A DNA stretch of 64,000 nt from an uncultured Candidatus Saccharibacteria bacterium (GCA_965230925.1 OZ246403.1:646541-710540); one strand, 5' to 3'. Counted from the first letter of the stretch, positions 1,966 to 60,960 are shown. Notes: a model not told the origin generated them from the sequence alone. Made by a program: numbers and translations.

Positions 1966-2037
<72 letters not shown>

Positions 2038-2732: not shown

Positions 2733-2753
2733 CAGGTTTACTTAAATTAAGAA

Positions 2754-2778
2754 AAGCGGGTCGCGATGACCCGCTTTC
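2754..2778 (+). terminator. Weak hairpin terminator after tRNA-Thr(GGT)
   Basis: GCGGGTC-GCGAT-GACCCGC followed by only TTT. Confidence 0.3.
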
Positions 2779-3197: not shown

Positions 3198-3270
3198 GCC
3201 GGAGTAGCTCAGTTGGTAGAGCAATGCTTTCGTAAAGCAGAGGTCGCGAGTTCAACTCTCGCCTCCGGCT
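3198..3270 (+). tRNA. tRNA-Thr (anticodon CGT)
   Basis: Acceptor GCCGGAG/CTCCGGC, D arm GCTC/GAGC, anticodon stem ATGCT/AGCAG (one A-G mismatch) with loop TTCGTAA, T arm GCGAG-TTCAACT-CTCGC. Confidence 0.8.
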
Positions 3271-3274
3271 CAAG

Positions 3275-4825: not shown

Positions 4826-4831
4826 TAAGCC

Positions 4832-5743: not shown

Positions 5744-5753
5744 GAAGATAATT

Positions 5754-6311: not shown

Positions 6312-6335
6312 TTTTACCTAAGATTTTAGACAATC

Positions 6336-6366
6336 AAAAACCCGAGCCACAAGGTTCGGGTTTTTG
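6336..6366. terminator. Bidirectional rho-independent terminator between convergent genes
   Basis: AAAAA-CCCGAGCC-ACAA-GGTTCGGG-TTTTT: 8-bp stem with one G-U, A-run and T-run on either side. Confidence 0.75.
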
Positions 6367-6390
6367 ATTTAAGCACTTGATTCTTAAGGC

Positions 6391-6648
6391 TTAAGATAAG
6401 TGCTTGGAGACAAGCTTGGTCATCTCAAACATGTTGACCATATCCTTGCCACCGAAGACTTTTTTCAAATTCTCGTCAGCGTTGATGTTGCGCTTGTTTT
6501 GGGGGTCTTGGAGATTGTGCTTTTTGATATATACCCACAACTTGCTGACCACTTCTGAGCGAGGCATGGGGCCATTGCCCACCACGGCTGCGAGTTCATC
6601 GCTGACCGTAAGCGGCTTCATAAATGCCGAATTTGTTTTTGTTGCCAT
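6391..6648 (-). CDS. SWIB/MDM2 domain-containing protein
   Basis: 85-aa protein whose pattern (KPLTVSDELAAVVG...RSEVVSKLWVYIKKHNLQDP...LKKVFG...MFEMTKLVSKHLS) is typical of bacterial SWIB domain proteins. Confidence 0.75.
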   Translation of the reverse strand: MATKTNSAFMKPLTVSDELAAVVGNGPMPRSEVVSKLWVYIKKHNLQDPQNKRNINADENLKKVFGGKDMVNMFEMTKLVSKHLS

Positions 6649-6734
6649 TTTTGCTTATTTGATTAATAAACCTTCCGTCCCGGGTATTGTAGCACACTTG
6701 AGTAATTCCAGCATTTCCAGTATTTTATAGCTAT

Positions 6735-6805
6735 TGCCGGATCGTCTAATGGTAGGACATCGCCCTTTGGAGGCGAGTATCTTGGTTCGAGTCCAAGTCC
6801 GGCAG
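6735..6805 (+). tRNA. tRNA-Gln (anticodon TTG)
   Basis: Acceptor TGCCGGA/TCCGGCA, anticodon stem TCGCC/GGCGA with loop CTTTGGA, T arm CTTGG-TTCGAGT-CCAAG. Confidence 0.8.
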
Positions 6806-6825
6806 TTTGTTTTGAGATATCTGAC

Positions 6826-7734
6826 ATGAAATCGGCTACTCCCAAATACGATTACGAGTGGTTCAAGAAAAGAGCTTTCGACTCGCTTTTATCTATCGCC
6901 CCACATGTGTGGGATTATTCTGATTCTTTACTGCTCTACATTTTTTCCGGCGCTGACGCTTACGAAACCCTTCAAGAAAAAGATTCTCCTTACTTTAGAT
7001 TAATTACTAAACCAGAACGAGAGTATCTCGAGGCAATTGCCAAGCAAGTGGTTAATCTGTTGCCCGTAAACTTTAACTACATTGATCTTGGTCCGGGCAC
7101 CGAGCATAAAGAGCAATTCTTTTTTGATGAACTGAAGAAACAAGGGAAGAAGTTTACCTATATTCCCGTTGATATTAGCGAACACTATCTCAAACTGGCT
7201 GAGAAGAATGCGAAAGATCAAGAAATTCCTGTTCGGGCGCTCCAAGCCTCGTTTGAAGAGCTGCCTGAAATTTTGGGAGAAGCGACAGTGCCAAGGTTTG
7301 TGAATCTTGGACTTACCTTTTCTAATTACGAACCACAAACGATTTTGAGTTTGCTAAAAAGTATTGCTGGGAAAAATGGTTATGCTTTTATCAACTCTCA
7401 AATCAGGGACCGTGTGGACATGGCTGCTATTCAAGCAATGTATGCCAAAGATGCGCTAACCTTAGCCGACGATAAACTAAAATTACTTGGTCTCGAACCA
7501 TCGGCAGATGTCACTCAGAGAGAAGCCGATAGTGGAATTAAAGCCTGGTGTTCGATTATTAATCTCTCATCGGAGCTTAAAGAAAGGGGAATTGAGATTG
7601 GAGACAAACTTCTGGTCTTCCAAACCCTTCGCTACACCGTAGAACAATTGGAAGCTGAGCTCAAAAAAGCCTTAAACGATTACCAATTGTTTGACACAGG
7701 GGCCCCGTTTGTAGGAGCGCTTATTAAGACCTGA
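6826..7734 (+). CDS. SAM-dependent methyltransferase, EgtD-like (Methyltransf_33 family)
   Basis: Nucleotide-binding IDLGPGTEHKEQ...; overall resemblance to histidine N-alpha-methyltransferase EgtD. No egtB-like partner gene nearby. Confidence 0.5.
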   Translation: MKSATPKYDYEWFKKRAFDSLLSIAPHVWDYSDSLLLYIFSGADAYETLQEKDSPYFRLITKPEREYLEAIAKQVVNLLPVNFNYIDLGPGTEHKEQFFFDELKKQGKKFTYIPVDISEHYLKLAEKNAKDQEIPVRALQASFEELPEILGEATVPRFVNLGLTFSNYEPQTILSLLKSIAGKNGYAFINSQIRDRVDMAAIQAMYAKDALTLADDKLKLLGLEPSADVTQREADSGIKAWCSIINLSSELKERGIEIGDKLLVFQTLRYTVEQLEAELKKALNDYQLFDTGAPFVGALIKT

Positions 7735-7843
7735 AGAACTTGTGTAAGTTTGGTATGTTTATGAAGCGGAATATTTACCAGAATCCACATTTAGTCGAGA
7801 ACGACAACTGGCAGCAAGAACGCGTCTAAGGTAGGATGGGGGA

Positions 7844-8344
7844 ATGTTTGTCTTGTCTTTCACCGTCGCCTTCTGCCTCCTCTACGGAGTGCTTATTTTT
7901 CTCTATCCTTACTTTTTCACCGGTGCTACGGCTTGGCCGGGGCGGCGGGCTAATTTGTTTTCCCTCCTCGCCATTATTGTAGCCACCTTCGTTATTTTCT
8001 CGCTTGTGCTCAATGTGTCTGATCCAATTCTCGCCAACCGTCTCCAACACGCCCTTGGTGGCGGCTTCATGGCGTTTTTTGTTTGTTTCCTCGCCGCCAC
8101 GCGCAGCGCTATTAGTTTGAGCCGATTCCAATTTTTTTGCTTCAGCTTCCTTATTGTCACGGCGCTTGGCGTGGCCAATGAAGTTTTAGAATTCTTTCTC
8201 CAAAATTATTTTGGTCTTCACTTCGCCAGCGCTGTCAACGACACTTGGCTCGATCTTATTTCCAACGTCATCGGCGCTCTCGTCGCCAGTATTATTTTTG
8301 TCCCCTTTGTGCGTAAAAAAGCGAAGGTGGTTGAAGATAACTAG
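7844..8344 (+). CDS. Hypothetical integral membrane protein (about 5 TM)
   Basis: Highly hydrophobic 166-aa product; no recognisable motif. Confidence 0.5.
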   Translation: MFVLSFTVAFCLLYGVLIFLYPYFFTGATAWPGRRANLFSLLAIIVATFVIFSLVLNVSDPILANRLQHALGGGFMAFFVCFLAATRSAISLSRFQFFCFSFLIVTALGVANEVLEFFLQNYFGLHFASAVNDTWLDLISNVIGALVASIIFVPFVRKKAKVVEDN

Positions 8345-9052
8345 ATGCTCCCAAATTTTTCTCCAATCCAAAATCATATCTTGTCGAAGCTGAAGAATGC
8401 GCAGTCGCTGCGCTATAGCGAGATGCAACCAGAGAAGGTGCCGAACGATCTCTATAATTACCATCTCCAATTTCTGGTGAAGAAAGGTTTTGTCACCAAG
8501 CTCGATGATGGGTATTCGCTCTCAGAAACCGGCATTAAACATGTCGCTGATCCCTATCCGGCGAACGACGCGATCACGAGTCTTTTTAAAATTAATGTGA
8601 TCACGGTGGTTTCGCGGGTGGTAAATGGCCAGATCGAGATTCTCAATCAAGAACGGAAGTCAAATCCTTCCTACGGCAAGATCGGAGTTCCTGGTGGCGT
8701 GGTGTTGAAAGGTGAACTCATTGAGCCAGCCGCGTCGAGAAAGCTCAAACAAGAAACCGGTCTCGAAGGAGAATTTAAACTTATGGGTTGCGAGCGACGG
8801 ATTATGTATAAAGACGGCGAGCTGTTTTCTGATGTGTTGTTTCCGATTTCCTACACTGACACCTCTTCCGGAGAACTTCTCGGAGAAAGTAATTTTGGTC
8901 GCAATTTCTGGTCACCGATTGACGAGGCTATTAAACATGAATCAACCGAATATGATTCGATCAAAAGTATTGTTCATGTTCTTAAGGCGGTGAAAGTCGG
9001 TGTGATTCGAGAGTTACCCTTCTTTTTCGAAGAAACTATTCAAGCCAATTAA
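8345..9052 (+). CDS. NUDIX hydrolase with N-terminal winged-helix-like domain
   Basis: Nudix box GGVVLKGELIEPAASRKLKQETGLEGEF (GX5EX7REUXEEXGU pattern). The ATG abuts the stop of the preceding ORF. Confidence 0.7.
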   Translation: MLPNFSPIQNHILSKLKNAQSLRYSEMQPEKVPNDLYNYHLQFLVKKGFVTKLDDGYSLSETGIKHVADPYPANDAITSLFKINVITVVSRVVNGQIEILNQERKSNPSYGKIGVPGGVVLKGELIEPAASRKLKQETGLEGEFKLMGCERRIMYKDGELFSDVLFPISYTDTSSGELLGESNFGRNFWSPIDEAIKHESTEYDSIKSIVHVLKAVKVGVIRELPFFFEETIQAN

Positions 9053-9135
9053 TTACCGAGGGAGCCCTCGCTAGATTGTTTTTTGAGCTCCAGTAATCTG
9101 GTGGTGGATTACTAGTAATTTTGAAAGGAACAATC

Positions 9136-9969
9136 ATGAACTCACCAATCAGTGATCTCAAAACAAAAGGGTTTGTCACTTTGGAATATCCGCCGGAGTT
9201 GCGAAAGGCAGTTCAGGTGGCAATAGGGGCATGGCAAGGGTTTTTCCAACTGCCGATAGATGACAAGGCGGTTCTGCCCTACAGCAATCAAGCTGCCGGT
9301 GTGGGTTATGAGGTGAAAGTTGGCAATGGTCCTAAAGCCGATCGTAAGGAGAATTTCGATCTCACCATTGCTGGCAAGTCATGGTTGGAATCCAACTTGG
9401 TCCACTTCGAGAATCCGGCAGCGCTCAATTTTGTTAACCGAGCGCTCGGTCTTATTCCGGTCATGAAACCGTTGATTCTTGATTTTGCTCGGCAAGCAGA
9501 AAGTACTTTTGGGCTCGCGGGATTCGCCGACGAAGTTGCGGTGAGTGAGAATGCTTACTTTGTGCGCTTCATTCATTACTTTGGCGGTCGTCAGATGGGG
9601 GATGAAATGGCGACAGCTCACGCTGATCAAAGCGGGTTCACATTACATCTCTTCGAGAGTGATCCCGGGCTTGAGTGTCTCAGTCTGTCTGACAAAAAGT
9701 GGATTGATATGCCGGTGTCGGAAGGCGAAACGGTGATCATTCCAGCGATGCAATTACAATTACGATCACAAGGAAAACTTACCGCGCTCGCGCATCGCGT
9801 CACGGCGCGCCCAGAAACAGTGAAGAAGGGACGCTTCTCGGCCGTGTGCTTTATTCAACTCAAGAACACTTCACAATACGACAAAGCGCGCCACGGCCGA
9901 CTCCAAGAGAAAGAGCCCGGGTTCAATTACGGCATGACTCACGGTGAATTTGCGAAGCTCTTTAAGTAA
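9136..9969 (+). CDS. 2-oxoglutarate/Fe(II)-dependent dioxygenase family protein
   Basis: HxD...H iron-binding pattern (HADQSG ... LAHRV) in a 2OG-FeII_Oxy-like context. Start moved to the ATG with SD GAAAGGAACAATC (the track starts at 9121). Confidence 0.5.
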   Translation: MNSPISDLKTKGFVTLEYPPELRKAVQVAIGAWQGFFQLPIDDKAVLPYSNQAAGVGYEVKVGNGPKADRKENFDLTIAGKSWLESNLVHFENPAALNFVNRALGLIPVMKPLILDFARQAESTFGLAGFADEVAVSENAYFVRFIHYFGGRQMGDEMATAHADQSGFTLHLFESDPGLECLSLSDKKWIDMPVSEGETVIIPAMQLQLRSQGKLTALAHRVTARPETVKKGRFSAVCFIQLKNTSQYDKARHGRLQEKEPGFNYGMTHGEFAKLFK

Positions 9970-10577
9970 TGAGCGTTTGGCCGGATTCAAGCGGTAGCCT
10001 ACGGGCTGCCGCTTTCTTGTCCTTGTGCTACACTAGAGACCATATGAAAAAGAATTTGCCAATTATTATTGGAGTAGCCTTGCCAATTATCTTTATTTTA
10101 GTCATCGCTCTCTTGGCCTTCGGCCCGACCTGGTCCATTAGGCCGGCGCATAACTTTATTTATAGTCACGATAATCGTGATTATTACTATGGTCGGCAAT
10201 ATCGCAATATCTATGATGTCGAGAACGGTAAGGTGGTAATGAAGCCACGCACGATCAATATGGTAAATCGAGAAAATGTGACCTGGGAAGATGCTCCGCC
10301 AATCTTTCTTTATAATGTAAAAAATAATTCTACTCACGAAATTGGTTTGGTTGAGGCCTTGGCACTTAATCTTGACCCGGGACCCACGTCGCCCGACGGT
10401 TACTTAGTAGAATATCGCTCGGGTGATTACGGTGTCTTCGAGCTCTTTGGCTCGAACAATAGCGCCAACGGTTACTATATTACGAAGGACCAAGCGGGGA
10501 AGAAGTTGGCCGGCTTCCAGAACGATCGCTATAGTTACTATGACCGCAATTTTAAGTTTCTTGGTTGGGTAAAATAA
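9969..10577 (+). CDS. Hypothetical signal-anchored secreted protein
   Basis: A more likely start is ATG at 10044 (MKKNLPIIIGVALPIIFILVIALLAF TM anchor). Tyr/Asn-rich extracytoplasmic domain. Confidence 0.5.
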   Translation: MSVWPDSSGSLRAAAFLSLCYTRDHMKKNLPIIIGVALPIIFILVIALLAFGPTWSIRPAHNFIYSHDNRDYYYGRQYRNIYDVENGKVVMKPRTINMVNRENVTWEDAPPIFLYNVKNNSTHEIGLVEALALNLDPGPTSPDGYLVEYRSGDYGVFELFGSNNSANGYYITKDQAGKKLAGFQNDRYSYYDRNFKFLGWVK

Positions 10578-10581
10578 TTTT

Positions 10582-11595
10582 ATGGACAAACAACAAGTAC
10601 TCGATCTCATTAAGCGCCAACTTGATTCCGGCGTTATTTCCTCTGAAGAGTTGCTCGCGGCGGCGCGTGGCGCAAGTGTTACTTCTGTTTCGCCGCCCAC
10701 TTCAACCGGCGCTTCTTCTCATCGTCTGGCCAATGTCTTCTACGCCATCGGTGCCGTGGTTGCTGTGGTCGGAGTGATTATTTTCCTCGTTCAACACTGG
10801 ATGGAGATTGGCTTTCTTGGTCGCGTCCTCGTCACTCTCGGGATTGCCGCTGTCACTTACATTGCTGGGATTCTCTTGCGCGGACCGGCCCATCGCGTGA
10901 TCTCGCAAATTATGTTTACCATCTCGGCTGTGCTCTCGCCGCTTGGGGTGGGGGTAATTCTTTACGAGGCGCGGGTGGCGATTACGCTTGATCTCCAGCT
11001 CATGGTGGCGTTGGCACTCTTTGTGCTCTTCGGCTTTGCTTATTTTCTTGCCCGGCGCAGTATTCTTATCTTGCTCACTCTTGGTTATGCCACCTGGGCG
11101 TACTACGTTTTGCTCATCAAGACATTCAGCTTCAGTTATTACAATTTTAATATTCTCAAGTGGGCCACGATCATTGCGGGGTTGGCCTACATCTTAATTG
11201 CTTATGGCTACGGTCGCTTGGCTTCGCCCGACTCTGGCACGGCCCAGACGGGCACGGCGCGCGAACGGGCCTCGGTTCGTGGGATTCTCTTTGGTCTCGG
11301 GACGCTCGGGGTTTTGGGCGCGGGCATCTCGCTCGGTGGGGGTTGGGATATTATCTTCGTCGCGGTACTTTTTGCCGCTTTTTACGCCAGTGTTTTCTTC
11401 CGGAGTCGGGTGATGCTTATTCTCGCGGCGCTTTTCCTTATGGCTCATATTGTTAAGCTCACTTCGCGTTACTTCGTTGGTTCAACCAGTTGGCCAATTG
11501 CTCTAGTGATCTGTGGTTTCATTATGATCGGTATTGGTTACGGCACCTTCCAGCTTAATCGTAAATATTTAAGCGTTTCATCAAACGCCAGTTGA
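10582..11595 (+). CDS. Hypothetical polytopic membrane protein
   Basis: Soluble N-terminal about 50 aa, then about 9 predicted TM helices; no known motif. Confidence 0.55.
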   Translation: MDKQQVLDLIKRQLDSGVISSEELLAAARGASVTSVSPPTSTGASSHRLANVFYAIGAVVAVVGVIIFLVQHWMEIGFLGRVLVTLGIAAVTYIAGILLRGPAHRVISQIMFTISAVLSPLGVGVILYEARVAITLDLQLMVALALFVLFGFAYFLARRSILILLTLGYATWAYYVLLIKTFSFSYYNFNILKWATIIAGLAYILIAYGYGRLASPDSGTAQTGTARERASVRGILFGLGTLGVLGAGISLGGGWDIIFVAVLFAAFYASVFFRSRVMLILAALFLMAHIVKLTSRYFVGSTSWPIALVICGFIMIGIGYGTFQLNRKYLSVSSNAS

Positions 11596-11655
11596 CCTAA
11601 TTTCCCCAATCCGTTAGCCTGAGTGACGGATTTCGTTATTTTGGGAGAGTTTGGC

Positions 11656-12747
11656 ATGAACTTTGACTTAAACGAATTGGCCGAAGCCTTTTGTAAGGCG
11701 ATGGCCAACGGTTGGTGGGGAGACCATGAAGAAGGTGAAGTTGTGCCCGGCGCTCCTAATTGTCGGTTCACATCATTCAAATTCAAAGGTTTCCGGGTGG
11801 TTGATTGTTGGCGGGTAACGAGAGGTCGGAGAAGTCCGGGTCGAGTTGCCATTTTGTTTGGAGGTAAAATTGTCTGGCAAATGGATTACTGGGAAGCATA
11901 CCCAGACGATCCAGTGGTCATGGATGCCGTGAAGAGAGGGGTGAGAAGCCTCTGTTCAAAGGGGATTTTCTCAGCTAGAGGGCCGAAGGTTCTTGCCTTT
12001 GGGGATGCGAGATACAAGGGCAAGCACCAGAGGTCTAGTCACGTTCTGGTGTACCAAAATTTGTACCGCGGTTCAATCAGGAGATTTTGCGGGGCAGAAG
12101 AAATCAGAAACGGCGACAGTTTAGTCGGTACGACCCAATATCGTGGTGGGCTTACAGAAGTGGGCCTGCCACTACCCATTGGACTAATCGGTCCTATTGG
12201 TGCCGGCAAGGAAGCCTTCTGGAAAATTCTCAGAGAGATTCTTTCTCCCCTCACTACCATTGATCGGTTTAGCACTTCGAATCTACTGGGTGGGGTCTTA
12301 GACATTCTTGGGATCCCGCGCGAGAGGTCCGATTTGCAGCGGGTGGCTCTCGCTTTGGATCGTCATTACTGCAAGGGCGTTGTGAGTCGGGCCGTAGCCA
12401 AGAACATGCTGGATAGCGGAAAAAAGGTGGTTGTCTTTGACTCCATTCGTTGGCCGACCGATATGAAGGCCGTTCGTGATAGAAGTGTGTTTCCGCAGAG
12501 TTTGGTTGTTCGTCTCAGAGCTGACCAAAGAACTCGTTGGGAGCGCGTACAAACCAGAAAGGAAAAACGCGGAGAAAACGGAATTTCTTTTGCGGCGTTT
12601 CAGCGGTCGGAAAGGGTTGGAACGGAAACGTCGATAGCAAGGTTGGCTCGACAGGCCGATGTTGTTATCGACAACGACGGTACTTTCGATGATCTACGAT
12701 CCCGCGTTGAGCAATTCGTTAAAGATCATATCGAACCCAAACTCTAA
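11656..12747 (+). CDS. Two-domain protein: unknown N-terminal domain fused to dephospho-CoA kinase-like P-loop domain (degenerate Walker A GAGKE)
   Basis: C-terminal IGLIGPIGAGKEAF...ARLARQADVVIDNDGTFDDLRSRVEQFV resembles CoaE, except K is followed by E instead of S/T. AGA/AGG/AGT-rich codon usage unlike the neighbours. Start assigned to ATG 11656 behind GGGAGAG (the track begins at GTG 11623). Confidence 0.55.
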   Translation: MNFDLNELAEAFCKAMANGWWGDHEEGEVVPGAPNCRFTSFKFKGFRVVDCWRVTRGRRSPGRVAILFGGKIVWQMDYWEAYPDDPVVMDAVKRGVRSLCSKGIFSARGPKVLAFGDARYKGKHQRSSHVLVYQNLYRGSIRRFCGAEEIRNGDSLVGTTQYRGGLTEVGLPLPIGLIGPIGAGKEAFWKILREILSPLTTIDRFSTSNLLGGVLDILGIPRERSDLQRVALALDRHYCKGVVSRAVAKNMLDSGKKVVVFDSIRWPTDMKAVRDRSVFPQSLVVRLRADQRTRWERVQTRKEKRGENGISFAAFQRSERVGTETSIARLARQADVVIDNDGTFDDLRSRVEQFVKDHIEPKL

Positions 12748-43703: not shown

Positions 43704-44618
43704 ATGCAAATGGGTTTGGGTCTTACTTTGACACAAGGTCACTTCGGTGACGACGATGATCTGAGTTATGTTGGCCAAATTATCGTCAACCTTCTGGCTT
43801 TTGTCAGCTCGAAACTTAATCTGTCGCAGACGCATTACGACATGGTTAACGGCGAAGAAGTGGTTGCCGCCGAGATGTTTATTCGCTACGGCTCGCGCTG
43901 GTTCGTTCGGAGCGAGTCCTTGCCTGCAGACATGTCGTTGAAGGCGATTGGCTTTGACTCTCGGGCGATTTATATCGAAACTTCGCCGATTGATGGATCA
44001 GCCATGATGGAGTTTATTGTGGAAAGAAATCAAATTTTTTCCTACGATAGTTCAGGCGGAACGATTCACAATCAAAAAAGCTCGGTGGTGGGTCGAGTTA
44101 GTAAGCTGGAAAAACCCCGTGTTGGTGAGAACGAACTTTCTCCTCGAGTTTGCTGGGTGATTCCTTTCGGGCCCACACTTCGTGACCGCGAGCAAAAACT
44201 TGTTCGTTTCATCGATCAAGCCTTCGAGGCTGGTGTCTTTTTGATTGAAGACGAACCCGCGATCGACAAAGTTCCTACCGGTGAAATGGAACTGAAACAG
44301 AACATGCAGATGGTTCAGCGGCTCCAGATCGAACAGCGACCGGTCCTCGCGCTTCAGGGTGTGGGTCAGATGGACGCGGCAATGAGACAGACTCAAGTTC
44401 AGAGACTTTTGGCAATTCAACAGCGAGTCATCCGAATGACTCCTGATGAAATGACCAAATTTGCCGCTGAAAAGCTGGTCGAGCTCGGTGAGCGAAAAGT
44501 TCATCAACTCTTCCTTTTCATTCTGGCCGGTCATCTGCGGCGGGCGAAACCGACCCTGACTTGGCCTCAAGCGCGCGAGCTTGCTCACAGGGTGCAAAAT
44601 GGTGCCGTGAGGTTGTGA
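43704..44618 (+). CDS. Hypothetical protein (304 aa, Gln-rich C-terminal half)
   Basis: Strong promoter and SD; no recognisable domain. Confidence 0.55.
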   Translation: MQMGLGLTLTQGHFGDDDDLSYVGQIIVNLLAFVSSKLNLSQTHYDMVNGEEVVAAEMFIRYGSRWFVRSESLPADMSLKAIGFDSRAIYIETSPIDGSAMMEFIVERNQIFSYDSSGGTIHNQKSSVVGRVSKLEKPRVGENELSPRVCWVIPFGPTLRDREQKLVRFIDQAFEAGVFLIEDEPAIDKVPTGEMELKQNMQMVQRLQIEQRPVLALQGVGQMDAAMRQTQVQRLLAIQQRVIRMTPDEMTKFAAEKLVELGERKVHQLFLFILAGHLRRAKPTLTWPQARELAHRVQNGAVRL

Positions 44619-48056: not shown

Positions 48057-48923
48057 TTATTTCATTCCCCAATAACCAAAAACGTAGCCGGTGGTGTAGT
48101 CAGAATTGGGAACAAAGTCTTCGGTGTTGAGAACCTGGAGATTAGCTGTGGCGAGTGCTTGTTTAGTCTTCATGGCGGTGAGAAAAGTGAGGAGCGCGGC
48201 ATTTGAATCAGCTTCAACCAAGTTAATTGATTCGCTGTCGAAGTTGTTGAGAATTGCTCCGGAGAGCTGGTCGAGCGGTGCCGCTTGATCTGGCGTGAGA
48301 TAGTGAGAGAAGTCCACGCTCGCAATGAGCACCGTCTCTTTATCGAGCCTTGACGCTAAGAATTCGCCGAGTTGTTTGGCTTCGGCTTGACTCGTGTTAG
48401 AACGGAGAATAATTGGTGTAAGACGAGCTTCTGGGAACAGACGACTAATGAGAAGAGTTTGGGTACCAATTGAGTGTTCGTTGTCGAACGGTTCTTCTTC
48501 GATGGACGCGATTTTTTCCTCACTTAACTTCTCGGCTAGGCCTGGGATTGGCTTCAGCTCGCCATAAGTACTCAAGAAGCTGGCGGCAGAAACGGTGATC
48601 GGTGTTTGCCCTGCATTAGTATGATCAGGTCCGAGAATAATAAAATTCTTAACCGTTTGCTTGGCTTTGAGCCCACGATAGAAGTTCAGGAGCTCGGGAA
48701 TAGTAGTGGGAATATGGTGAGGAACAATGCCGCCAGAGATATGTGAGAGAGAAATTGGTTCAGGTGATTCCGGATTTTCGAGAGCAGTCTCAATTAGCGG
48801 TGTATATTCATTCCAGAGTGATTGGTGGTAAGTGAAAATCTTTTCCTCGCTGGCACTACCAGTGAAGTAGGCCAGGGCAAGAGCCAGTAGTACGAGAACA
48901 CTAGCGAATAGTAACCGTCGCAT
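48057..48923 (-). CDS. Memo1/AmmeMemoRadiSam-system-protein-B family protein with N-terminal signal anchor
   Basis: ISGGIVPHH, ILGPDH and SVDFSHYL blocks (Memo GPSH/DFSHY). N-terminal MRRLLFASVLVLLALALAYF. Overlaps the 3' end of the upstream giant gene by 23 nt. Confidence 0.6.
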   Translation of the reverse strand: MRRLLFASVLVLLALALAYFTGSASEEKIFTYHQSLWNEYTPLIETALENPESPEPISLSHISGGIVPHHIPTTIPELLNFYRGLKAKQTVKNFIILGPDHTNAGQTPITVSAASFLSTYGELKPIPGLAEKLSEEKIASIEEEPFDNEHSIGTQTLLISRLFPEARLTPIILRSNTSQAEAKQLGEFLASRLDKETVLIASVDFSHYLTPDQAAPLDQLSGAILNNFDSESINLVEADSNAALLTFLTAMKTKQALATANLQVLNTEDFVPNSDYTTGYVFGYWGMK

Positions 48924-51900
48924 TCTGAGAAATTGTCATGCTGGCTAGACTCTTGAGTGACTGGAGAATGGCTGGCTCAGCCTGATAGCGACCCTTCGAC
49001 ACCACGCGCGCCGTATAAGAAATTGAGCGGGGAGGATTCTTGCTAACGACGAAGGCTACTTCTTGATTTTCAATTTTTATGGGGTAATGCATCAGAATAT
49101 CTTTACCGCCGAAGGAGCGGCTGGCTTCCGGACTCACGGCGCGTAAACCGCTCGGTAAGTAATCCGTGAGTTTATAGGCGCCATCAAGAGATTGGGGGCC
49201 AAAACTTGGTGTGAGGTATACGGTCACAAGATCACCATCTTTGAACTCGGTGGTGGGAACACCGTTTACCGAGTATGAGCGCGTAAGTGTGAGATTAGAA
49301 TCTTTAACAACATCTTTTGGTGACGACGGCATTTCATATTGAGTTGTGAGACCGAGATTACCTTTTACCTCATTTAGTTTGAATGATTTTAATTCTTCTG
49401 CCGAGAGATTGAGAACCAGAGTTTCATTATTGCTTAGGGTTTTGTTCTCAGTTTTATTTCCTAGCTGATAACTGAACTTTGTTTCGGCGGCCTCGGTGTG
49501 AGCGAGAGCGCGGCTGAGGTAAATGAGTTCAGGGAAACTGTTGAGAATTTCTCGAGGATTATTGGTTTTCCCATAGAGGGCAAGGGCTGCCGCTTCCTTC
49601 TCTTCCAAACCAGCCGCTAGTGCCGCGGCGAGGGCGGTGGCCGTAATTGTTTCATCTGGTGGCAGATTTCTTACATATGCATATGAAGCTTGTTGGGTAA
49701 TCTCGGGCAGAATGGCGGTGCGATAATATTGCCGAGCATCTTCTTTAGCGCCAAGTGTTTCAAGGGCGAGGCCGACAAAGATTTTTTCGGTGATGGCGAG
49801 GGAAGTATCTTTGGCAAGAGTTTGGAGTTTGGGAAGAATTGGTTCACGGAAAGCACTGAGGCCAAAGAGGGCGCGGACACTGCGCGATCGATCTGCTTGT
49901 TTGTTTACGAGATTGTCGTGAAGATACTTTCGCAAGGCAACTCGGTTTATTGTCTGATCGTTGAAGAGATGAGCGCCGAGGCTCGAGATTTCAAGTTCAT
50001 CACCGGAGTACGGTAAGAGTTGTAAACCGCCGGAGTAAGATTGATATCGTTCACTTGGGAAAAGTTCATAAGGTTGCTCCTCAGCAAAATATTTTTTAAG
50101 CAATTCTTTCGCCGCGAATGTGGCACCCACTTGATCCAATCTTGGTCCGCGGTCGAGGGTGAGATGCTTGAGGTCTCGATACAGAGTGCCACGACCCGCT
50201 TCGCTGAAGGTGAGCGTGGTGTAGCCACTTGTCTTTGGTTCAATGGTCAAGCCAGCTGTTCCTTGGTAGAAATCAGCCGTGTTTTTATTGAAGTAACTTT
50301 CCACCACGTGAAGTGGGCTCACTAATCCATCAGTTGAGTTCCCGTTCTGAGCTCTCGCCGTAATTTTATGATCGCCGACGGTCAATTTTCCAAGGGCGAG
50401 ATCGATAATTGCACCGCCAATTTGTTCAATTTTCTTGAAGGGCAGAGTGGGGCTTTCCGCGCTGTACTTAGTGCTGTCCGAGATAACACCAGAGCCGAAG
50501 GTGCGCAGGCGCAGAGTGAGTTCGTCGCCAGCGAGATAAGTGTTATTAAGTGTGGTGTCGACGAAGAAGGGCAATGAGACGGGGATGAAAGAGACTGTTT
50601 TTCCGGCAAACAAGTCTTGAGTTACCGCCTGACTGGTGAGCCGCCACGAGGTAATGTTTTCCGGTAATTTGAAGTTTACTTTTGCGTGACCAGATCCATT
50701 GGTTACTATTGAGCGGAAAATAGCCGTTTCTTGAATATCGGAGCGCGGTGAAAGGCCTTCGCCGCCACCCATTTCTGCCCCGCCGCCACCACGGCCATCA
50801 TCGCGCGGTGGTCGGTGAGAAGAACGGAGCGTAAGCGATTGGAAGACGTCTCGGTAGAGAGATTGGGTAATGTCTTCTTCATTTGGTCGGAGAGAAAAGA
50901 CGGCCTCATCAATGGCCGAGAGATTTACTTCCGCTTTAGTGGGAGCTCCGGCGGCGTCGGTAACGCGGATATCAAGTTCTATGTTTTGACCGGGCATGAA
51001 GGAAGCTTGATTTGGGGTTACCGCAACGTTGAGTCGCCGTGTTTCGGCATTGAAGGAGAGGTTCTCGCGATAACTATTGTGGAAGCGGCCGCCGCTAAAC
51101 CACCCAGCCCACAGGTTAGCGTTCGGAATAAACTTGTTTTGGAAGGTTACCTGATAGGCGGGAGAATCCTGGATTTTGTAGGTGAGTTCATTGTTGTTTG
51201 CCACCGTGATGAAGATAAACTTATTTGATCCTGGTAGAAGGGTTTCGTCATTAGAATTGCGGATATTCAGGTTTACTAATTCGCCCAGTTGGTAGCCATT
51301 CTTTTTTTCTTCCAGTGGCCTAATTTGATAAGAGTAATCCTCATTTCCTTCCAGTCTAGGACTCTCGCCGTAGATATAACGGTCAGTTTTGAGCTGGCGA
51401 CCAAATTCGTCGTTGGTAGTAAAGGTGAGACTGTAGGTTTTTTTCTCTTCTGGTGAAAGAGAAAACTGAGCAATGCCACTAGCGTTGGAGGTGACCGTGC
51501 GGGTCTCGAGGAATTTTTCTTCTTTCGAATATTTATAAATTGGTTCGGTGGTTTTACTAATCGGATTATAGCGCGTGCCTGTTTGGTTTTTATGCTGAAT
51601 TACTTCGGTTACAGTAACCACTGTTTCTAGGTTAGGGACAGGGGCACCGAGATACTTTGTAGTGTCCCAAGAAGGCGTGCCTGAAGTAATATTACCTAGA
51701 GTAATAATATTATTTTTCAGCTCGAAATTTGTTTGGCCGCCTACTTTCTTCTGAGTAATCGTTTGATGAATATGCGGTCCAAAAATGAATATCGTGGCGC
51801 TGGTATTAATTTCTCCAGCTTCCGCCTGGGTGGGCCGGACACTTAAGTTGAAATGATTTGGCCAGTAGCGTTCCTCACCAGTGTAGGCGGTTGGAATAGT

Positions 51901-53727
51901 AATTGTGCCTTCGCCGCGCCCATCCAGAGTAATAATCCCGTTCCGTTGCTTGTTAATGAGGTAGCCTGAGTAAGTAAGGCCGAGATTTGTGACCGGTGTG
52001 CCGTCGAAGAATTCCCCCTTCACTTTGAAGGTGGCAGTTTCTCCAGCGAAGATGGCTGGTTTTTCCGGGCTTAGGGTTAATTGATAGGCCGGCTTAATAT
52101 ACTCGCTTATCGAGAGACCTTCTTGGGCAATAATTTCTTCACCTCGGCGGAGAGTGAGATAGTAAAATCCGGGCGAGAGATTCTCATAGGCTATTTCCCC
52201 AGTCAGGGTGTGATAGTCAGAGAGTTTGAAATTTTTGGTGGCGTAGATGGTTTTATTTTTTTCATTATCTGACCAGTAAACATTGCTTAAAGTGGCGGTA
52301 ATTTCTTCACCCGTGGCACTGTCTGCTCGCGGCTTGGCAATAGCCCAGAAGCGAATGATGTCGCTTGGGAGATAAATTGTTTTGTTGAGAGAAATATAAT
52401 CCCACCAAGTGTCTTGCTCATTGAAATCGGGTCGGTAACCATAGTCATTTTCTACCGGAATAACCACACTACCGCCAGGAGCTTCAGCTAAGAAGAAGTT
52501 CTCATCTTTAAGAATCTCGGGAGGGGTGGTGAAGATGGCGACTCCATCGGCGCCGGTCCGGGCGACTTCTTTTCCTCTCACTCGAATTGGCACATTGGCC
52601 AAACTGTTTTCTGTAGCGGCATTTTTGAGCCAGATCAATGATTGACCATTTCCCACCGCGGCTAAACTGGCTACCGGGCTCACTTGGAACCAGGCCATGT
52701 CGGTGTTGTCATTGGCGGTCAGAGCTATGGCGTAATAACCGACAGCGAGGGAGTTTGGGAGACGGACGAAACTGTTGTAACCTTCATTTGTTTTAATAAT
52801 TGGTAAAGTGGCGGAAAATGTTTTTTGTGAGGCAATTGCGTCGAGATCAGTATAGCGATGGTAGAAAGCCCAGGGATCTTGTTTCTTCGCTTGCGAAAGA
52901 AGTTCTAGAAATTGATTGGCAGAGTCAAAACGGTAAACCGCGGCCACCGCTTCGCTTACATTGCTACTAACATTGAATTCAATTGGTGAATCTGGTTTAA
53001 ATTCAGCAAAGGAGGGGTAAAAGTGGATGTATGGACCGCGCGCGTTCCCGCCCGCCTGCGTGGTCTCAAACCGGATAATTTTTTCTTCCCCTAGTTTTTC
53101 GCTCGAGCCTTCGGTGCCGAGCTCCGGCTTAACGGTAATGGTGTAAATGGTTTGTGGCTTCAAAGTGAGTCTTGGGATAAAACGAACTTTATTTCCCGAA
53201 AAGTCGAAGTCACCATCTGTCTTTGGAGTAATTTCAATATGTTTTGCCGGATCGTTGATGTTTTCACGATTAAATTCAATTTCAATTCCGGTATTGAGGG
53301 GGACATTGTTGGCTTGATGGCGAGGGAGAGAGCTCGTGATCGCGAACGGTGCCTTCACTTGGTAAGCCCAAGAGTAATCACGGTTCGAGAGTTCGCCACC
53401 GGCGATAGCGAGAGTGTAAATTTCATTAGTGTTGAGAGGAACTGTAGGGATAATTTCAAAGGTATTTCCAGAATCAACCTTCTTAACCTCGAAATCAGTT
53501 TCTGGAACAATCTTCAAATTATCTTCAATTGTTCCTACACCGAGGGGGGCTGAGGAGGTGAGAATAAAGCGGCTTTCGGCGTTAATCCCATTCGCATCAG
53601 CCGTGCTCGCGGTGAGGGTGAAGTCCGAGACGACCACCGGCCCTCTGCCTTTCATCCGAGGCCAAAAAACTACCGCCGCGATAATTAAAATCACGACCGC
53701 ACCTACCAAATAAGCTTTTTGTTTCAT
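48901..53727 (-). CDS. Giant secreted multidomain protein, alpha-2-macroglobulin (A2M/YfaS)-like, thioester-less
   Basis: 1608 aa. Signal anchor, many beta-sandwich (MG/Ig-like) segments, and an alpha-helical toroid-like region (AITEKIFVGLALETLGAKEDARQYYRTA...ATALAAALAAGL) where TED would sit. No CxEQ motif found. Confidence 0.5.
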   Translation of the reverse strand: MKQKAYLVGAVVILIIAAVVFWPRMKGRGPVVVSDFTLTASTADANGINAESRFILTSSAPLGVGTIEDNLKIVPETDFEVKKVDSGNTFEIIPTVPLNTNEIYTLAIAGGELSNRDYSWAYQVKAPFAITSSLPRHQANNVPLNTGIEIEFNRENINDPAKHIEITPKTDGDFDFSGNKVRFIPRLTLKPQTIYTITVKPELGTEGSSEKLGEEKIIRFETTQAGGNARGPYIHFYPSFAEFKPDSPIEFNVSSNVSEAVAAVYRFDSANQFLELLSQAKKQDPWAFYHRYTDLDAIASQKTFSATLPIIKTNEGYNSFVRLPNSLAVGYYAIALTANDNTDMAWFQVSPVASLAAVGNGQSLIWLKNAATENSLANVPIRVRGKEVARTGADGVAIFTTPPEILKDENFFLAEAPGGSVVIPVENDYGYRPDFNEQDTWWDYISLNKTIYLPSDIIRFWAIAKPRADSATGEEITATLSNVYWSDNEKNKTIYATKNFKLSDYHTLTGEIAYENLSPGFYYLTLRRGEEIIAQEGLSISEYIKPAYQLTLSPEKPAIFAGETATFKVKGEFFDGTPVTNLGLTYSGYLINKQRNGIITLDGRGEGTITIPTAYTGEERYWPNHFNLSVRPTQAEAGEINTSATIFIFGPHIHQTITQKKVGGQTNFELKNNIITLGNITSGTPSWDTTKYLGAPVPNLETVVTVTEVIQHKNQTGTRYNPISKTTEPIYKYSKEEKFLETRTVTSNASGIAQFSLSPEEKKTYSLTFTTNDEFGRQLKTDRYIYGESPRLEGNEDYSYQIRPLEEKKNGYQLGELVNLNIRNSNDETLLPGSNKFIFITVANNNELTYKIQDSPAYQVTFQNKFIPNANLWAGWFSGGRFHNSYRENLSFNAETRRLNVAVTPNQASFMPGQNIELDIRVTDAAGAPTKAEVNLSAIDEAVFSLRPNEEDITQSLYRDVFQSLTLRSSHRPPRDDGRGGGGAEMGGGEGLSPRSDIQETAIFRSIVTNGSGHAKVNFKLPENITSWRLTSQAVTQDLFAGKTVSFIPVSLPFFVDTTLNNTYLAGDELTLRLRTFGSGVISDSTKYSAESPTLPFKKIEQIGGAIIDLALGKLTVGDHKITARAQNGNSTDGLVSPLHVVESYFNKNTADFYQGTAGLTIEPKTSGYTTLTFSEAGRGTLYRDLKHLTLDRGPRLDQVGATFAAKELLKKYFAEEQPYELFPSERYQSYSGGLQLLPYSGDELEISSLGAHLFNDQTINRVALRKYLHDNLVNKQADRSRSVRALFGLSAFREPILPKLQTLAKDTSLAITEKIFVGLALETLGAKEDARQYYRTAILPEITQQASYAYVRNLPPDETITATALAAALAAGLEEKEAAALALYGKTNNPREILNSFPELIYLSRALAHTEAAETKFSYQLGNKTENKTLSNNETLVLNLSAEELKSFKLNEVKGNLGLTTQYEMPSSPKDVVKDSNLTLTRSYSVNGVPTTEFKDGDLVTVYLTPSFGPQSLDGAYKLTDYLPSGLRAVSPEASRSFGGKDILMHYPIKIENQEVAFVVSKNPPRSISYTARVVSKGRYQAEPAILQSLKSLASMTISQNATVTIR

Positions 53728-58722: not shown

Positions 58723-60960
58723 ATGATTACAAAGTCCCACCCTCTCTTTTGGGGCAGTATTTTTTCCCTTTTTTCACTGTTATTTTTTGTTTCTAGTGTT
58801 TTTGCCGTGGTTAATCCGCCCGCTGGTTGCCCGGCAGTTTCCTTCGATAGTGATAAGAATTTTGTGGTTAACGGTGAAAAGTATTTCCCTTTTGGTTTCT
58901 GGGCTTTTTCCGGTGGCGCGGCTAGTGGCAATTGGAGCGGTTATTCTGGTTCTTTCAACGCCGTGGTTGATGGCCCCACCATTAGTAGTGAGGGCACTCT
59001 CACTAGTAATAATCTCAAACTTTTTGCTCAGGTCGATGGTGATGCCGGCCTTGCAGAAAGTCACGACGATAATGAGGGAATTATTGCCTGGGAAGTAATG
59101 CATGAGCCAAACAGCTTAGGACTTAGTGGCTCAGCGGTGGCGGCCCAAGCGAGCGCAATGCGCGCCGCCGATGATTGTGGCCGACTAATTTTCGTTACTC
59201 CGAGCTTGGGCGGTATTGCTGAAGGTTATGTTAATCAGGTGCGTAATGCGGTTGATTTTGCCGCCATTGAGACTGGTTATTTGGTGCCGCAATTACCGAT
59301 TGAGGAGGTGGGGGAACTTTTTAGCGAGGGTGCTGACGCGATGGCGGCCGTGGGCAAGCCGTCAATTTTCTTGGCGCGGGTAGGTGGTTATCAACCCGCT
59401 CGTTTCCGTGACACTTTCCGTGAGTCAACCGTGGCCGAGCTAAGAGCGCAAATTTTTGATGCCATTATTCGTGGAGCGAAAGGGGTTTTTCTCTGGCCAT
59501 TTGAGAAAGGGGTAATTTTGAGTGATCTCCAGCCTTTTGAGCCCGCTAATGCGATTTATGATATGGAAGATAGTTCTTCAGCTGGCCTCTATGGTGGGAT
59601 TAAAAATCTGGCTTCGGAGATTGCCGAACGGGAAGAAATTTTCACGGCGCCGGTATCAAGCGGTGTGGGGGTGTCTAGTAACAATTCTGACGTGAAGTGT
59701 GGTTGGCGGACACTTTCTGGAGAGCGACGGCGTTTAATTTGCGTTAATTTGTCTCAAGATCATTCACCGTATTTCGACTATGGTAGTGGCGAGACGGTTT
59801 GGCGGCTTAAAGCACGAGCGATTACGCCTGGAGCGGAATCTTTTCCCACGGACTATGCTAGTGGCAGTTTCATTGCACGAGACTTACTTCCCGGGACGGT
59901 GGCGGTTCAAGATTTGTCTACTGGTTTAACCAATCAAAACAAACTGATGACGACAGTGGAAATTGATTTTGACACTGTTCCAACTGGCGCCACCTTTACC
60001 TACGCTGTTTATGCAGACAACTCTCGTGATCAGGCGCCAGATACGAGAATCTTTCTTTCCAATGAACTGGCGATTAACGGCTCTGGACCACAAACCTTTC
60101 CGGTGGTTGGAGTAACTCTTGAGCACACCAAGAATTATTACTTGTTGATTCAAACCAATACAGCCGGAGTGCGGGTCAGGGCGCGAGACGTGCGAGGCGG
60201 CGTGCGACCTAAAGATGACTCTACTGCAGTGCCACTTGCCGAGAGCTTCGAAGATCTGCACGTGGGCGACAGTGCGAGCAATGTTCGCCTCACACTAAGT
60301 GGCGATGAGTTTAGTGCTTATTGTGTTGAGAAAAATTTTGGTAATTGCGCGAATGGAAGTGTGGCTGGCGGCGTACTCACAGATTCTTTCAGTGAATATG
60401 CCGTACATATTTATCACTTTGAGCCGGCAGAAGAAGAGTTGCTCGATACCACCGACACCACAGACCCTACGGTTCCTGATGAGCAATCGGATATTTTGCC
60501 ACCCAATTTACCCCCCGATGAACCACCACCCCTTTTGCCGCCGCCGACTGTTCCCACGACCCCTCTTAGCTCAACACCATGCGCGCCAAGCACCGGAACT
60601 GTGTTACCGGCCGTGGTTGGACCGCTCTCTTTGGGGATGAAAAACAATGCGCAGGTTAGTGCCCTTCAGCGTTTGCTTGCTACCGACCGCACCCTTTACC
60701 CTGAAGGAATTGTTTCTGGTTATTATGGTCCGCTCACTCGTGAGGCGGTGAAGCGTTTCCAGCTTCGTTACAGTTTGGTGAATCTTGCGACCACTGACCC
60801 GTCACTTATTGGCTTCGCTGGCCCCGCCACCCGCGCCAAGATGAATGAAGTTTTGCGCCAGACTAGTTCGGTTTGTTCTTTAGTCAACTTGCCCGAGCAA
60901 ACTCGCTTACAATTAATTCAACTTTTGCACCTTCTTGCTATAATGTTGAATTCTCGATGA
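58723..60960 (+). CDS. Secreted TIM-barrel glycoside-hydrolase-like protein with C-terminal peptidoglycan-binding (PG_binding_1) domain
   Basis: Signal peptide; IIAWEVMHEPN resembles the GH5-type xEP acid/base block; Pro-rich linker; C-terminal LQRLLATDRTLYPEGIVSGYYGPLTREAVKRFQ PGBD motif. Confidence 0.5.
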   Translation: MITKSHPLFWGSIFSLFSLLFFVSSVFAVVNPPAGCPAVSFDSDKNFVVNGEKYFPFGFWAFSGGAASGNWSGYSGSFNAVVDGPTISSEGTLTSNNLKLFAQVDGDAGLAESHDDNEGIIAWEVMHEPNSLGLSGSAVAAQASAMRAADDCGRLIFVTPSLGGIAEGYVNQVRNAVDFAAIETGYLVPQLPIEEVGELFSEGADAMAAVGKPSIFLARVGGYQPARFRDTFRESTVAELRAQIFDAIIRGAKGVFLWPFEKGVILSDLQPFEPANAIYDMEDSSSAGLYGGIKNLASEIAEREEIFTAPVSSGVGVSSNNSDVKCGWRTLSGERRRLICVNLSQDHSPYFDYGSGETVWRLKARAITPGAESFPTDYASGSFIARDLLPGTVAVQDLSTGLTNQNKLMTTVEIDFDTVPTGATFTYAVYADNSRDQAPDTRIFLSNELAINGSGPQTFPVVGVTLEHTKNYYLLIQTNTAGVRVRARDVRGGVRPKDDSTAVPLAESFEDLHVGDSASNVRLTLSGDEFSAYCVEKNFGNCANGSVAGGVLTDSFSEYAVHIYHFEPAEEELLDTTDTTDPTVPDEQSDILPPNLPPDEPPPLLPPPTVPTTPLSSTPCAPSTGTVLPAVVGPLSLGMKNNAQVSALQRLLATDRTLYPEGIVSGYYGPLTREAVKRFQLRYSLVNLATTDPSLIGFAGPATRAKMNEVLRQTSSVCSLVNLPEQTRLQLIQLLHLLAIMLNSR

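Follow-up and report, generated by a model that had tools for sequence, protein, structure and literature searches.

Why does the gene of a Memo-like protein overlap the gene of a giant, putative surface protein in an uncultured Candidatus Saccharibacteria bacterium? The two genes occupy positions 48,057 to 53,727 of a stretch of 64,000 nucleotides (nt) of its DNA (GCA_965230925.1 OZ246403.1:646541-710540). This whole stretch is called the window here; coordinates of features are window positions and refer to the minus strand unless stated otherwise. An earlier interpretation of the locus (the sequence-only reading) had proposed a secreted Memo1-like protein in one operon with a thioester-less relative of alpha-2-macroglobulin (A2M), the two perhaps forming a surface module for protease trapping or host interaction. 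Our analysis shows that the large protein is a full-length member of the A2M family and that the two genes form a conserved, old cassette. The coordinates of both open reading frames, the length of 1608 amino acids (aa) of the A2M-like protein and the gene overlap of 23 nt were confirmed by direct reading of the sequence. The ATG of the Memo-like gene (48923-48921) starts 23 nt before the end of the TAG stop codon of the A2M-like gene (48903-48901), which suggests translational coupling of the two genes.

The A2M-like protein was first assigned by its domains. Its Big_5, A2M_BRD and A2M domains score above the Pfam cutoffs and its C-terminal bMG10 domain weakly, and no NCBIfam model matches the protein. 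The seventh macroglobulin (MG) domain, MG7, aligns to the MG7 domains of human and frog A2M, and its NITSWR motif is kept in the family. A profile of 48 family members was compared with the Protein Data Bank (PDB). The top matches were ECAM (YfhM; E = 2.2e-27) and the Salmonella A2M (E = 3.4e-24), followed by insect TEP1, CD109, human A2M and the complement proteins C3, C4 and C5. These matches lie in the N-terminal, central and C-terminal stretches and are collinear; at the C-terminus profile positions 1446-1623 match ECAM 1414-1608. Alignment of the family profile to ECAM by hhalign, with the sequence taken from E. coli K-12, had a Prob of 99.35 (E = 6.5e-21) and covered 1115 columns, in which residues 444-1607 of the window protein correspond to ECAM 389-1650.

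The AlphaFold2 (AF2) model of residues 420-1608 (window 48904-52470) had a mean predicted local distance difference test (pLDDT) score of 84.7 and a predicted template modelling (pTM) score of 0.73. In it, beta-sandwich domains follow one another, a disordered loop spans residues 966-991, residues 1179-1409 form an entirely helical domain, and beta domains stand at the end. In a Foldseek search with this model ECAM (3.3e-48) and the Salmonella A2M (7.8e-48) led, and complement C4b, CD109, A2ML1, TEP1 and C5 came after them, with approximately 1350 aligned columns. The best 50 matches were all A2M, C3, C4, C5, TEP or CD109 structures. The protein has the architecture of the A2M/C3 superfamily, namely an MG array, a bait-region domain (BRD), MG7, a CUB/thioester domain (TED) insert and a C-terminal MG domain. 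Thus, the large protein is a full-length A2M family member, as the sequence-only reading had assumed. A generic Ig-repeat adhesin, which had been named as the alternative, was rejected because the profile search, hhalign, AF2 and Foldseek all give the A2M/complement fold.

The A2M-like protein does not contain a single cysteine. Therefore, a CxEQ thioester is impossible, in agreement with the earlier claim, and the absence of cysteine likewise precludes a lipobox and a lipoprotein anchor. In the hhalign columns the thioester site GCLEQ of ECAM corresponds to PRLDQ, with C1187 of ECAM replaced by R1196. This is no peculiarity of the window protein: RLDQ is the consensus of the A2M-like family, and CxEQ was found in none of its 81 members, as against 15 of the 34 more distant A2Ms obtained in the same search. 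A hydrophobic segment at the N-terminus was present in 77 of the 81 family members. Since this segment is the sole hydrophobic one in the window protein and no lipobox is possible, the simplest prediction is a type-II membrane protein of which five residues remain in the cytoplasm and approximately 1585 form the ectodomain.

Between the bait-region domain and MG7 lies a glycine-rich loop (residues 966-994, …RPPRDDGRGGGGAEMGGGEGLSP…), which aligns to the ECAM stretch between the same two domains and for which AF2 predicts disorder (pLDDT <50 at model residues 547-572). The motif GGAExGG was found at the equivalent position in approximately 45 of the 81 homologues, including all close relatives from Patescibacteria and a protein from Peptococcaceae.

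The small protein belongs to the Memo family (Pfam PF01875, E = 4.9e-20, 72.3 bits at a cutoff of 27; NCBIfam TIGR04336, 81.3 bits at a cutoff of 26). Grouped at 50% identity, the relatives of the window's Memo-like protein form 626 clusters if E <= 1e-30 is required and 3337 if E <= 1e-10 is allowed, and public annotations name homologues AmmeMemoRadiSam system protein B. An AF2 model built with 29 homologues reached a pLDDT of 92.9. Iron- and copper-bound MEMO1 and apo Memo led the Foldseek matches of this model (E ~2e-14, TM ~0.7; 7kq8 and 3bcz). The DOPA, gallate and aminophenol extradiol dioxygenases followed (E ~1e-7 to 1e-8, TM ~0.5-0.55). In sequence, the protein is only about 15% identical to MEMO1. 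MEMO1 was reached by family profiles only (E = 9e-13 for the Memo-like family profile); single-sequence phmmer searches of the PDB with the Memo-like protein and with its relative P0106 gave no meaningful match.

Twelve residues (H69, H70, P99, H101, V203, D204, F205, H207, Y208, A214, D239 and Y280) were invariant over 43 homologues with identities down to 24%. MEMO1 coordinates iron or copper via H49, H81 and C244, and the third ligand of the dioxygenases is a glutamate (PMC11081632). The MEMO1 sequence used for residue mapping matched the PDB alignments over residues 23-210 and showed the expected residue at positions 49, 81, 189, 192 and 244. Five equivalences were obtained with hmmalign; in local mode this alignment ended before the region of C244, and D239 was assigned to C244 by global hhalign. 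The Memo-like protein contains no cysteine. Since the invariant Asp239 aligns with MEMO1 Cys244, a putative 2-His-1-Asp metal site consisting of His69, His101 and Asp239 can be deduced for the family. Candidates for the metal ligands sought in the sequence-only reading can thus be named. This conserved site supports the proposed metal-dependent accessory protein; that it is also an enzyme is conceivable.

The Memo-like protein begins with MRRLLFASVLVLLALALAYF-TGSAS-EE, of which residues 2-21 form a helix in the AF2 model. A possible cleavage site lies between S-A-S and E. An N-terminal hydrophobic segment was found in 110 of 120 Memo-like homologues, and the ten exceptions resemble N-terminally truncated gene calls. 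The N-terminal export or anchor segment claimed earlier is thus predicted for most of the family.

The genomic context of the Memo-like gene was analyzed in one genome per GTDB species. Among 378 Memo-like relatives the best 80 loci were inspected. In 48 of these, all from different species, an A2M homologue lies directly upstream on the same strand, and in three further loci it is one or two genes upstream or cut by a contig edge. The distance between the genes is mostly -25 to +22 nt, and among the 48 paired loci the two genes most often overlap, by 3-55 nt. Every locus with a Memo-like protein at least 36% identical to that of the window, and with upstream sequence present, is paired. The paired loci in Patescibacteria belong to the Paceibacteria type and to Kerfeld-, Wildermuth-, Zambryski-, Moranii-, Woese- and Levybacteria and WWE3. 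Beyond Patescibacteria the pair was found in a Dehalococcoidia metagenome-assembled genome (MAG), an Acidobacteria MAG and several Bacillota, including the cultured Pseudobacteroides cellulosolvens ATCC 35603, Brassicibacter mesophilus DSM 24659 and Tepidanaerobacter sp. GT38, so that at least four phyla are represented. The flanking genes are wholly different among these taxa; in P. cellulosolvens RecJ and RelA genes come after the pair. Since the linkage spans phyla with unrelated flanks, the A2M-Memo pair is a conserved, old cassette of two genes and not a side effect of a compact genome.

Absence of the pair from relatives was one of three findings that would have refuted the sequence-only reading; none of the three was obtained. 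That reading had described the pairing for a thioester-less A2M, but the pairing is not specific to such A2Ms. The thioester motif YPYGC[VMIA]EQTTS was found in nine more distant A2Ms linked to Memo (L024, L026, L034, L038, L039, L049, L056, L068 and L078), which come from Moranii-, Zambryski- and Woesebacteria, WWE3 and unclassified MAGs. The A2M of L038 (3843-8789) contains the Pfam domains MG2, bMG3, BRD, A2M, TED_complement and bMG10. Because thioester-bearing A2Ms also precede a Memo gene, the pairing is not tied to the loss of the thioester. AMMECR1 and radical-SAM genes, the usual partners of Memo, were absent within 10 kb on either side of the window pair, as had been claimed; the claim stands for this interval, to which the search was confined. 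Among the 80 loci these genes were not conserved neighbours either, and Memo was the only conserved partner. The features of the locus are collected in Table 1.

Table 1. Features of the A2M-Memo locus in the window, with the evidence for each assignment
Feature	Window position	Strand	Evidence
A2M-like coding sequence, 1608 aa, ATG start	48901..53727	-	Open reading frame listing, Pfam, profile vs PDB, hhalign, AF2, Foldseek
Predicted N-terminal transmembrane anchor, residues 5-22 AYLVGAVVILIIAAVVFW, preceded by MKQK	53662..53715	-	Sole hydrophobic 19-mer in the protein
Big_5 Ig-like domain, residues 126-202, N-terminal region	53122..53352	-	Pfam PF13205, E=1.8e-09
A2M_BRD bait-region domain, residues 806-946	50890..51312	-	Pfam PF07703, E=2.2e-10, above cutoff
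Gly-rich bait-equivalent loop, residues 966-994 TLRSSHRPPRDDGRGGGGAEMGGGEGLSP, GGAExGG motif	50746..50832	-	AF2 disorder, ECAM alignment
A2M (MG7) domain, residues 1001-1074, PENITSWR signature	50506..50727	-	Pfam PF00207, E=2.9e-09
Helical TED-like domain, residues 1179-1409	49501..50193	-	AF2 all-helical segment; collinear with ECAM TED (hhalign)
Degenerate thioester site PRLDQ, residues 1195-1199	50131..50145	-	hhalign column mapping to ECAM G-C1187-L-E-Q
C-terminal MG10-like domain, residues 1492-1590	48958..49254	-	Pfam bMG10 weak (E=1.1e-3); profile matches ECAM C-terminus
A2M/Memo gene overlap, 23 nt	48901..48923	-	Direct sequence reading
Memo-like coding sequence, 288 aa, ATG start	48057..48923	-	Pfam Memo, TIGR04336, AF2, Foldseek
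Predicted N-terminal signal peptide or signal anchor of Memo-like protein, MRRLLFASVLVLLALALAYFT, then GSAS/EE	48861..48923	-	Sole hydrophobic segment
His69 (MEMO1 H49), putative metal ligand	48717-48719	-	hmmalign
His101 (MEMO1 H81), putative metal ligand	48621-48623	-	hmmalign
His150 (MEMO1 H131), near putative metal site			hmmalign
Asp204 (MEMO1 D189), near putative metal site			hmmalign
His207 (MEMO1 H192), near putative metal site			hmmalign
Asp239 (MEMO1 C244), putative metal ligand	48207-48209	-	Global hhalign

With moderate confidence we propose that the locus encodes a surface protease trap or shield together with an obligate extracytoplasmic metalloprotein partner of the Memo fold, the two being translationally coupled. 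In a monoderm Patescibacteria cell, the N-terminal helix would hold the A2M-like protein on the outside of the membrane. Cleavage of the loop would trigger a conformational change by which the attacking protease is caged or blocked non-covalently and the envelope is shielded. Non-covalent trapping as in MagD is the most likely mode because the window protein has no thioester. The Memo-like protein would be an obligate, roughly stoichiometric partner outside the cytoplasm, kept in fixed proportion by translational coupling, and may interact physically or functionally with the A2M-like protein. It could be a metal-dependent enzyme with the envelope or its A2M partner as target, or a stabilising or locking subunit in place of PBP1c or MagB of the diderm A2Ms. 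Action on the envelope could be argued by analogy with PBP1c, from fusions to CapA and from occasional YkuD or S11 neighbours, which are described below. Action on the conserved loop could also be imagined; this option is weakened since A2Ms with a HINT domain in the loop keep their Memo gene.

Known bacterial A2Ms fall into two types, with both of which the window protein shares features. The thioester-less MagD of Pseudomonas aeruginosa (Type II) traps its protease non-covalently after bait cleavage; it is a periplasmic protein of Gram-negative bacteria, encoded in the six-gene operon magABCDEF (PMC5764988). The statement of the sequence-only reading that pbpC is the known partner of bacterial A2M genes was thus too narrow. 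Like MagD and the YfaS class of E. coli, the window protein combines a full-length A2M fold lacking CxEQ with a predicted extracytoplasmic membrane association and a dedicated partner gene. It differs from this type by its own N-terminal helix anchor, by its occurrence in an organism of the monoderm Patescibacteria type, by having only a Memo-fold partner and by a loop which carries the conserved GGAExGG. In the list of Pfam neighbours within the same 10 kb on either side nothing evident corresponded to the other five mag genes, Mag protein sequences not having been compared. By this list only the missing thioester, and not the mag operon of the yfaA-yfaT type, is shared with Type II.

The Type I proteins, ECAM and the Salmonella A2M, are the best matches by profile and by structure, collinear over approximately 1100-1350 positions. 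The yfhM-pbpC arrangement, seen in E. coli K-12, likewise provides a single, tightly linked downstream partner. However, ECAM, a lipoprotein, carries its thioester in the sequence GCLEQ and has the peptidoglycan synthase PbpC as its partner, whereas the window protein has PRLDQ, no cysteine, a predicted transmembrane anchor and Memo instead of PbpC. The thioester of Type I is retained in Memo-paired relatives from Patescibacteria such as L038 (YPYGCMEQ and a Pfam TED). To our knowledge, work on bacterial A2Ms has been confined to the periplasm of Gram-negative bacteria, where Type I is linked to PbpC and Type II belongs to the mag operon.

The Memo-like protein shares its fold with MEMO1, and equivalents of His49, His81, His131, Asp189 and His192 are present. 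But MEMO1 is cytosolic and has Cys244 as ligand, whereas the Memo-like protein is predicted to be exported or anchored, has no cysteine and carries an invariant aspartate at this position. Its putative 2-His-1-carboxylate arrangement is nearer to that of the dioxygenases, with their glutamate as third ligand, than to that of MEMO1. His69, His101 and Asp239 align to the triad positions of the LigB class III extradiol dioxygenases and His207 to MEMO1 H192; the fold is less similar to these dioxygenases (TM ~0.55) than to MEMO1. The lineages concerned are described as obligate anaerobes or fermenters. Because of this description a dioxygenase role would be unexpected. The score for AmmeMemoRadiSam protein B (TIGR04336) exceeds its cutoff, but the N-terminal anchor and the lack of AMMECR1 and radical-SAM genes in the neighbourhood set the window protein apart. 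The name is a family-level match and gives no evidence of membership in that system.

Several points weigh against the trap with an obligate Memo partner. Both protein families are known here from sequences and models, and the signal peptides or anchors of both proteins are predicted from hydrophobicity. The equivalence of D239 with C244 comes from a profile alignment to a MEMO1 sequence compared with the PDB over residues 23-210, and is putative. The AF2 model of the A2M superposes better on protease-activated ECAM (4ziq, TMq 0.62; 4rtd, 0.57) than on native ECAM (5a42, TMq 0.32); this likeness may mean that there is no spring-loaded native state, or may be an artefact or bias of modelling. 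The loop is marked by the conserved GGAExGG and is not a hypervariable bait, which would suit a special site of processing no less than a lure. Some A2M-like relatives occur without any Memo. The Memo-like family also occurs without an A2M, either beside an exported protein called C2 (17 of 80 loci) or as lone Memo-CapA fusions, so that its function is not strictly A2M-specific.

The last observation leads to a reading which is possible but which we consider unlikely. The locus would be an envelope-maintenance machine in which the Memo-like enzyme, often together with CapA, is the core acting on a wall or capsule polymer, and the A2M is an interchangeable scaffold or shield, comparable to the 'defence plus repair' idea for ECAM-PBP1c. 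This explanation is favoured by the constancy of the Memo-like protein amid changing partners (an A2M in 48 of 80 loci, C2 in 17 of 80, a CapA fusion in approximately 25). A homologue of the metallophosphatase-like CapA/PGA_cap domain (PF09587; E = 9e-77 in L005) was present in approximately 25 of the 80 loci and was mostly fused to the C-terminus of the Memo-like protein (L003, L004, L005 at 9956-11737, L011, L013, L014, L016, L017, L021, L025, L027, L035, L044-L046, L053, L061 and L067). In L089 (9233-11153) Memo and CapA are separate genes, and A2M, Memo and CapA follow each other consecutively. This locus also carries, a few kb away, a canonical Memo-AMMECR1 fusion and a radical-SAM gene (899-2461 and 1-12); the A2M-linked Memo is thus a distinct paralogue. 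Genes for a YkuD L,D-transpeptidase and/or an S11 D-Ala-D-Ala carboxypeptidase belong to the module or adjoin it in approximately 8 of the 80 loci (L003, L005, L013, L039, L043, L053, L075 and L079). They recall the E. coli A2M-PbpC link, and the diderm pairing of A2M with PbpC also ties A2Ms to peptidoglycan enzymes (PMC5764988; E. coli yfhM-pbpC). However, YkuD genes are common in these genomes and their adjacency may be due to chance. Moreover, tblastn found no CapA domain and no C2 protein anywhere in the 64-kb window, no transglycosylase or transpeptidase gene lies within 10 kb of the pair, whose A2M gene has an MFS gene upstream and the Memo gene downstream as neighbours, and no substrate can be named for such a machine.

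The C2 protein itself was found directly upstream of the Memo-like gene in 17 loci lacking an A2M (L022 at 8131-9936, L028 at 8563-9849, L052, L080 and 13 others). It is 340-600 aa long and predicted to be exported, and its C-terminal domain of approximately 185 aa is conserved (CGKPVIYLYP...YPYLFWEG...YYFITF...). C2 had no Pfam match, and hhalign of the C2 family with the A2M and Memo profiles gave Prob <1%.

Attachment to a host appears improbable. According to this explanation, which takes up the host-interaction role suggested in the sequence-only reading, the giant MG/Ig protein would attach an episymbiont to its host, having lost the trap function with the thioester, and Memo would aid its maturation. 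Patescibacteria are commonly characterized as symbionts or episymbionts, and a large, apparently surface-anchored array of beta-sandwiches with Big_5 domains and a lost thioester would fit this life style. However, the complete A2M domain order is kept, including the TED-like and MG10 domains, and thioester-bearing versions share the Memo partner. Because the same pair occurs in cultured Bacillota, besides Dehalococcoidia, no specific support for a host-interaction role is left.

The conserved loop has a further aspect in the relatives. In at least 19 A2M-like homologues a HINT domain of approximately 150 aa (PF07591, PF13403 or PF05203) is inserted directly after GAExGG, at a point corresponding to window 50746-50832 (P0144, P0146, P0150, P0153, P0162 and P0170 and loci L013, L014, L017, L019, L021 and L065 among them). 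The domain starts with Cys-Phe and ends with VHN, and the next residue is E, Q, D or A and not Cys, Ser or Thr. A pattern like that of bacterial inteins but lacking Cys, Ser or Thr at position +1 is expected to cleave and not to splice, and the Gly/Cys-Phe junction resembles the autoprocessing site of Hedgehog. Because of its +1 residues the HINT domain probably cleaves itself and does not splice. Seven of the nine thioester-bearing, Memo-linked A2Ms carry a HINT domain in the bait region and are potentially self-activating thioester proteins.

These relatives raise the question whether GGAExGG is a maturation site, cut by a Memo-like hydrolase or, in relatives, by HINT, so that a two-chain form is deployed. 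We give this explanation little credence. It accounts for a loop motif that is conserved, unlike a bait, for the HINT insertion exactly behind this motif, for the likeness of the AF2 model to cleaved ECAM and for a Memo-like protein in which dioxygenase activity would be surprising. On the other hand, the Memo/LigB superfamily is not known to us to include a peptidase. Furthermore, HINT-bearing A2Ms (L013, L014, L017, L019, L038 and others) still have the downstream Memo gene; thus, Memo is not simply a trans-acting substitute for HINT. An extension of this idea, which we regard as speculative and equally doubtful, would make A2M-Memo(-CapA) a third class of bacterial A2Ms, mainly of monoderms. 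The loop would then be an activation site, fired in some members by their own Hedgehog-like HINT domain at a Gly/Cys-Phe junction, in proteins with an intact thioester, and in the others by the exported Memo-type 2-His-1-Asp protein as a trans-acting trigger or conjugating enzyme; the protein would serve a programmed, complement-like deployment on its own surface or on a partner cell instead of passive trapping.

Adjacency alone is weak evidence in a region so tightly packed on one strand, with gaps of 12-18 nt, but a coincidental neighbourhood of a generic repeat protein and a mis-annotated, functionally unrelated cytoplasmic Memo is hardly credible and is effectively refuted by the linkage in 48 of 80 species loci from at least four phyla with different flanks, by the matches over the full A2M topology and by the N-terminal anchor in 110 of 120 Memo homologues.

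A different arrangement was found for some more distant, thioester-less A2M-like proteins without Memo (P0164, P0178, P0195 and P0199). Upstream of their genes lies instead a gene for an extracytoplasmic function (ECF) sigma factor, which abuts the A2M-like gene or overlaps it by 4-8 nt (L084 at 5466-10956, L085 at 5432-11343, L087 at 3342-9253 and L090 at 3411-9088). These ECF-linked proteins have an N-terminal, predicted cytoplasmic region of 45-95 residues before the transmembrane helix. The zf-HC2 anti-sigma motif was detected in P0178 and in P0198, the latter known from the protein alone. Possibly, the ECF-linked proteins are anti-sigma factors with an A2M ectodomain as protease sensor. 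P0187 and P0189 have neither a Memo nor an ECF sigma partner.

In the literature searched, the coverage of which was incomplete, we found no account of a pairing of A2M with Memo or AmmeMemoRadiSam proteins, of A2Ms in the candidate phyla radiation, of Memo-CapA proteins, of HINT-interrupted A2Ms or of anti-sigma-A2M fusions. Thus far, the suspicion that the pairing had not been described is borne out: it is new to this literature, the A2M superfamily and the Memo family themselves being known. The A2M-Memo locus represents a widespread third context for bacterial A2Ms, with examples from Patescibacteria, Bacillota and Dehalococcoidia and from an Acidobacteria MAG. By its predicted topology it places an A2M on the exposed surface of cells lacking an outer membrane, beside a putatively exported Memo-fold protein. 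The enigmatic Memo/AmmeMemoRadiSam-B fold thereby gains a concrete, presumably extracellular partner and a testable metal site, and the automatic label 'AmmeMemoRadiSam system protein B' is misleading for the A2M-linked subfamily. The HINT-interrupted bait loops and anti-sigma fusions suggest that A2M ectodomains were repurposed for self-activation and signalling. The cultured carriers P. cellulosolvens, B. mesophilus and Tepidanaerobacter sp. GT38 open a complement-like protein on a monoderm surface to study.

The gene order on the strand of the pair is SecG, SBP_bac_5, RNase J, major facilitator superfamily (MFS), A2M and Memo, and the SBP, RNase J, MFS and A2M genes are separated by the short gaps mentioned above. 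Downstream of the Memo gene a UvrD/PD-(D/E)XK helicase-nuclease gene is oriented convergently. A scan for promoters and terminators between 47.5 and 59.5 kb gave counts not above those of shuffled sequence (11 vs 12.6 and 16 vs 14.3). Neither protein matched a PADLOC defence model, and a cluster look-up returned no public names or accessions for them. For both proteins the closest homologues belong to Paceibacteria-type Patescibacteria (Taylorbacteria, Vogelbacteria and Minisyncoccia).

Further features of the window lie apart from the pair. An open reading frame of 304 aa at 43704-44618 (+), between a PCMT-type methyltransferase gene and a yqeY-like gene, had no Pfam or NCBIfam match. Rfam and tRNA scans of the window yielded as their only matches six tRNA genes far from the pair, a cluster of five (two Met, Asp and two Thr) and a tRNA-Gln, at 1966-3271 and 6734-6806 (+). 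Finally, a gene at 58723-60960 (+), oriented divergently from the string of genes from SecG to Memo, encodes a protein of 745 aa whose sole Pfam match is a C-terminal PG_binding_1 domain (residues 642-686).

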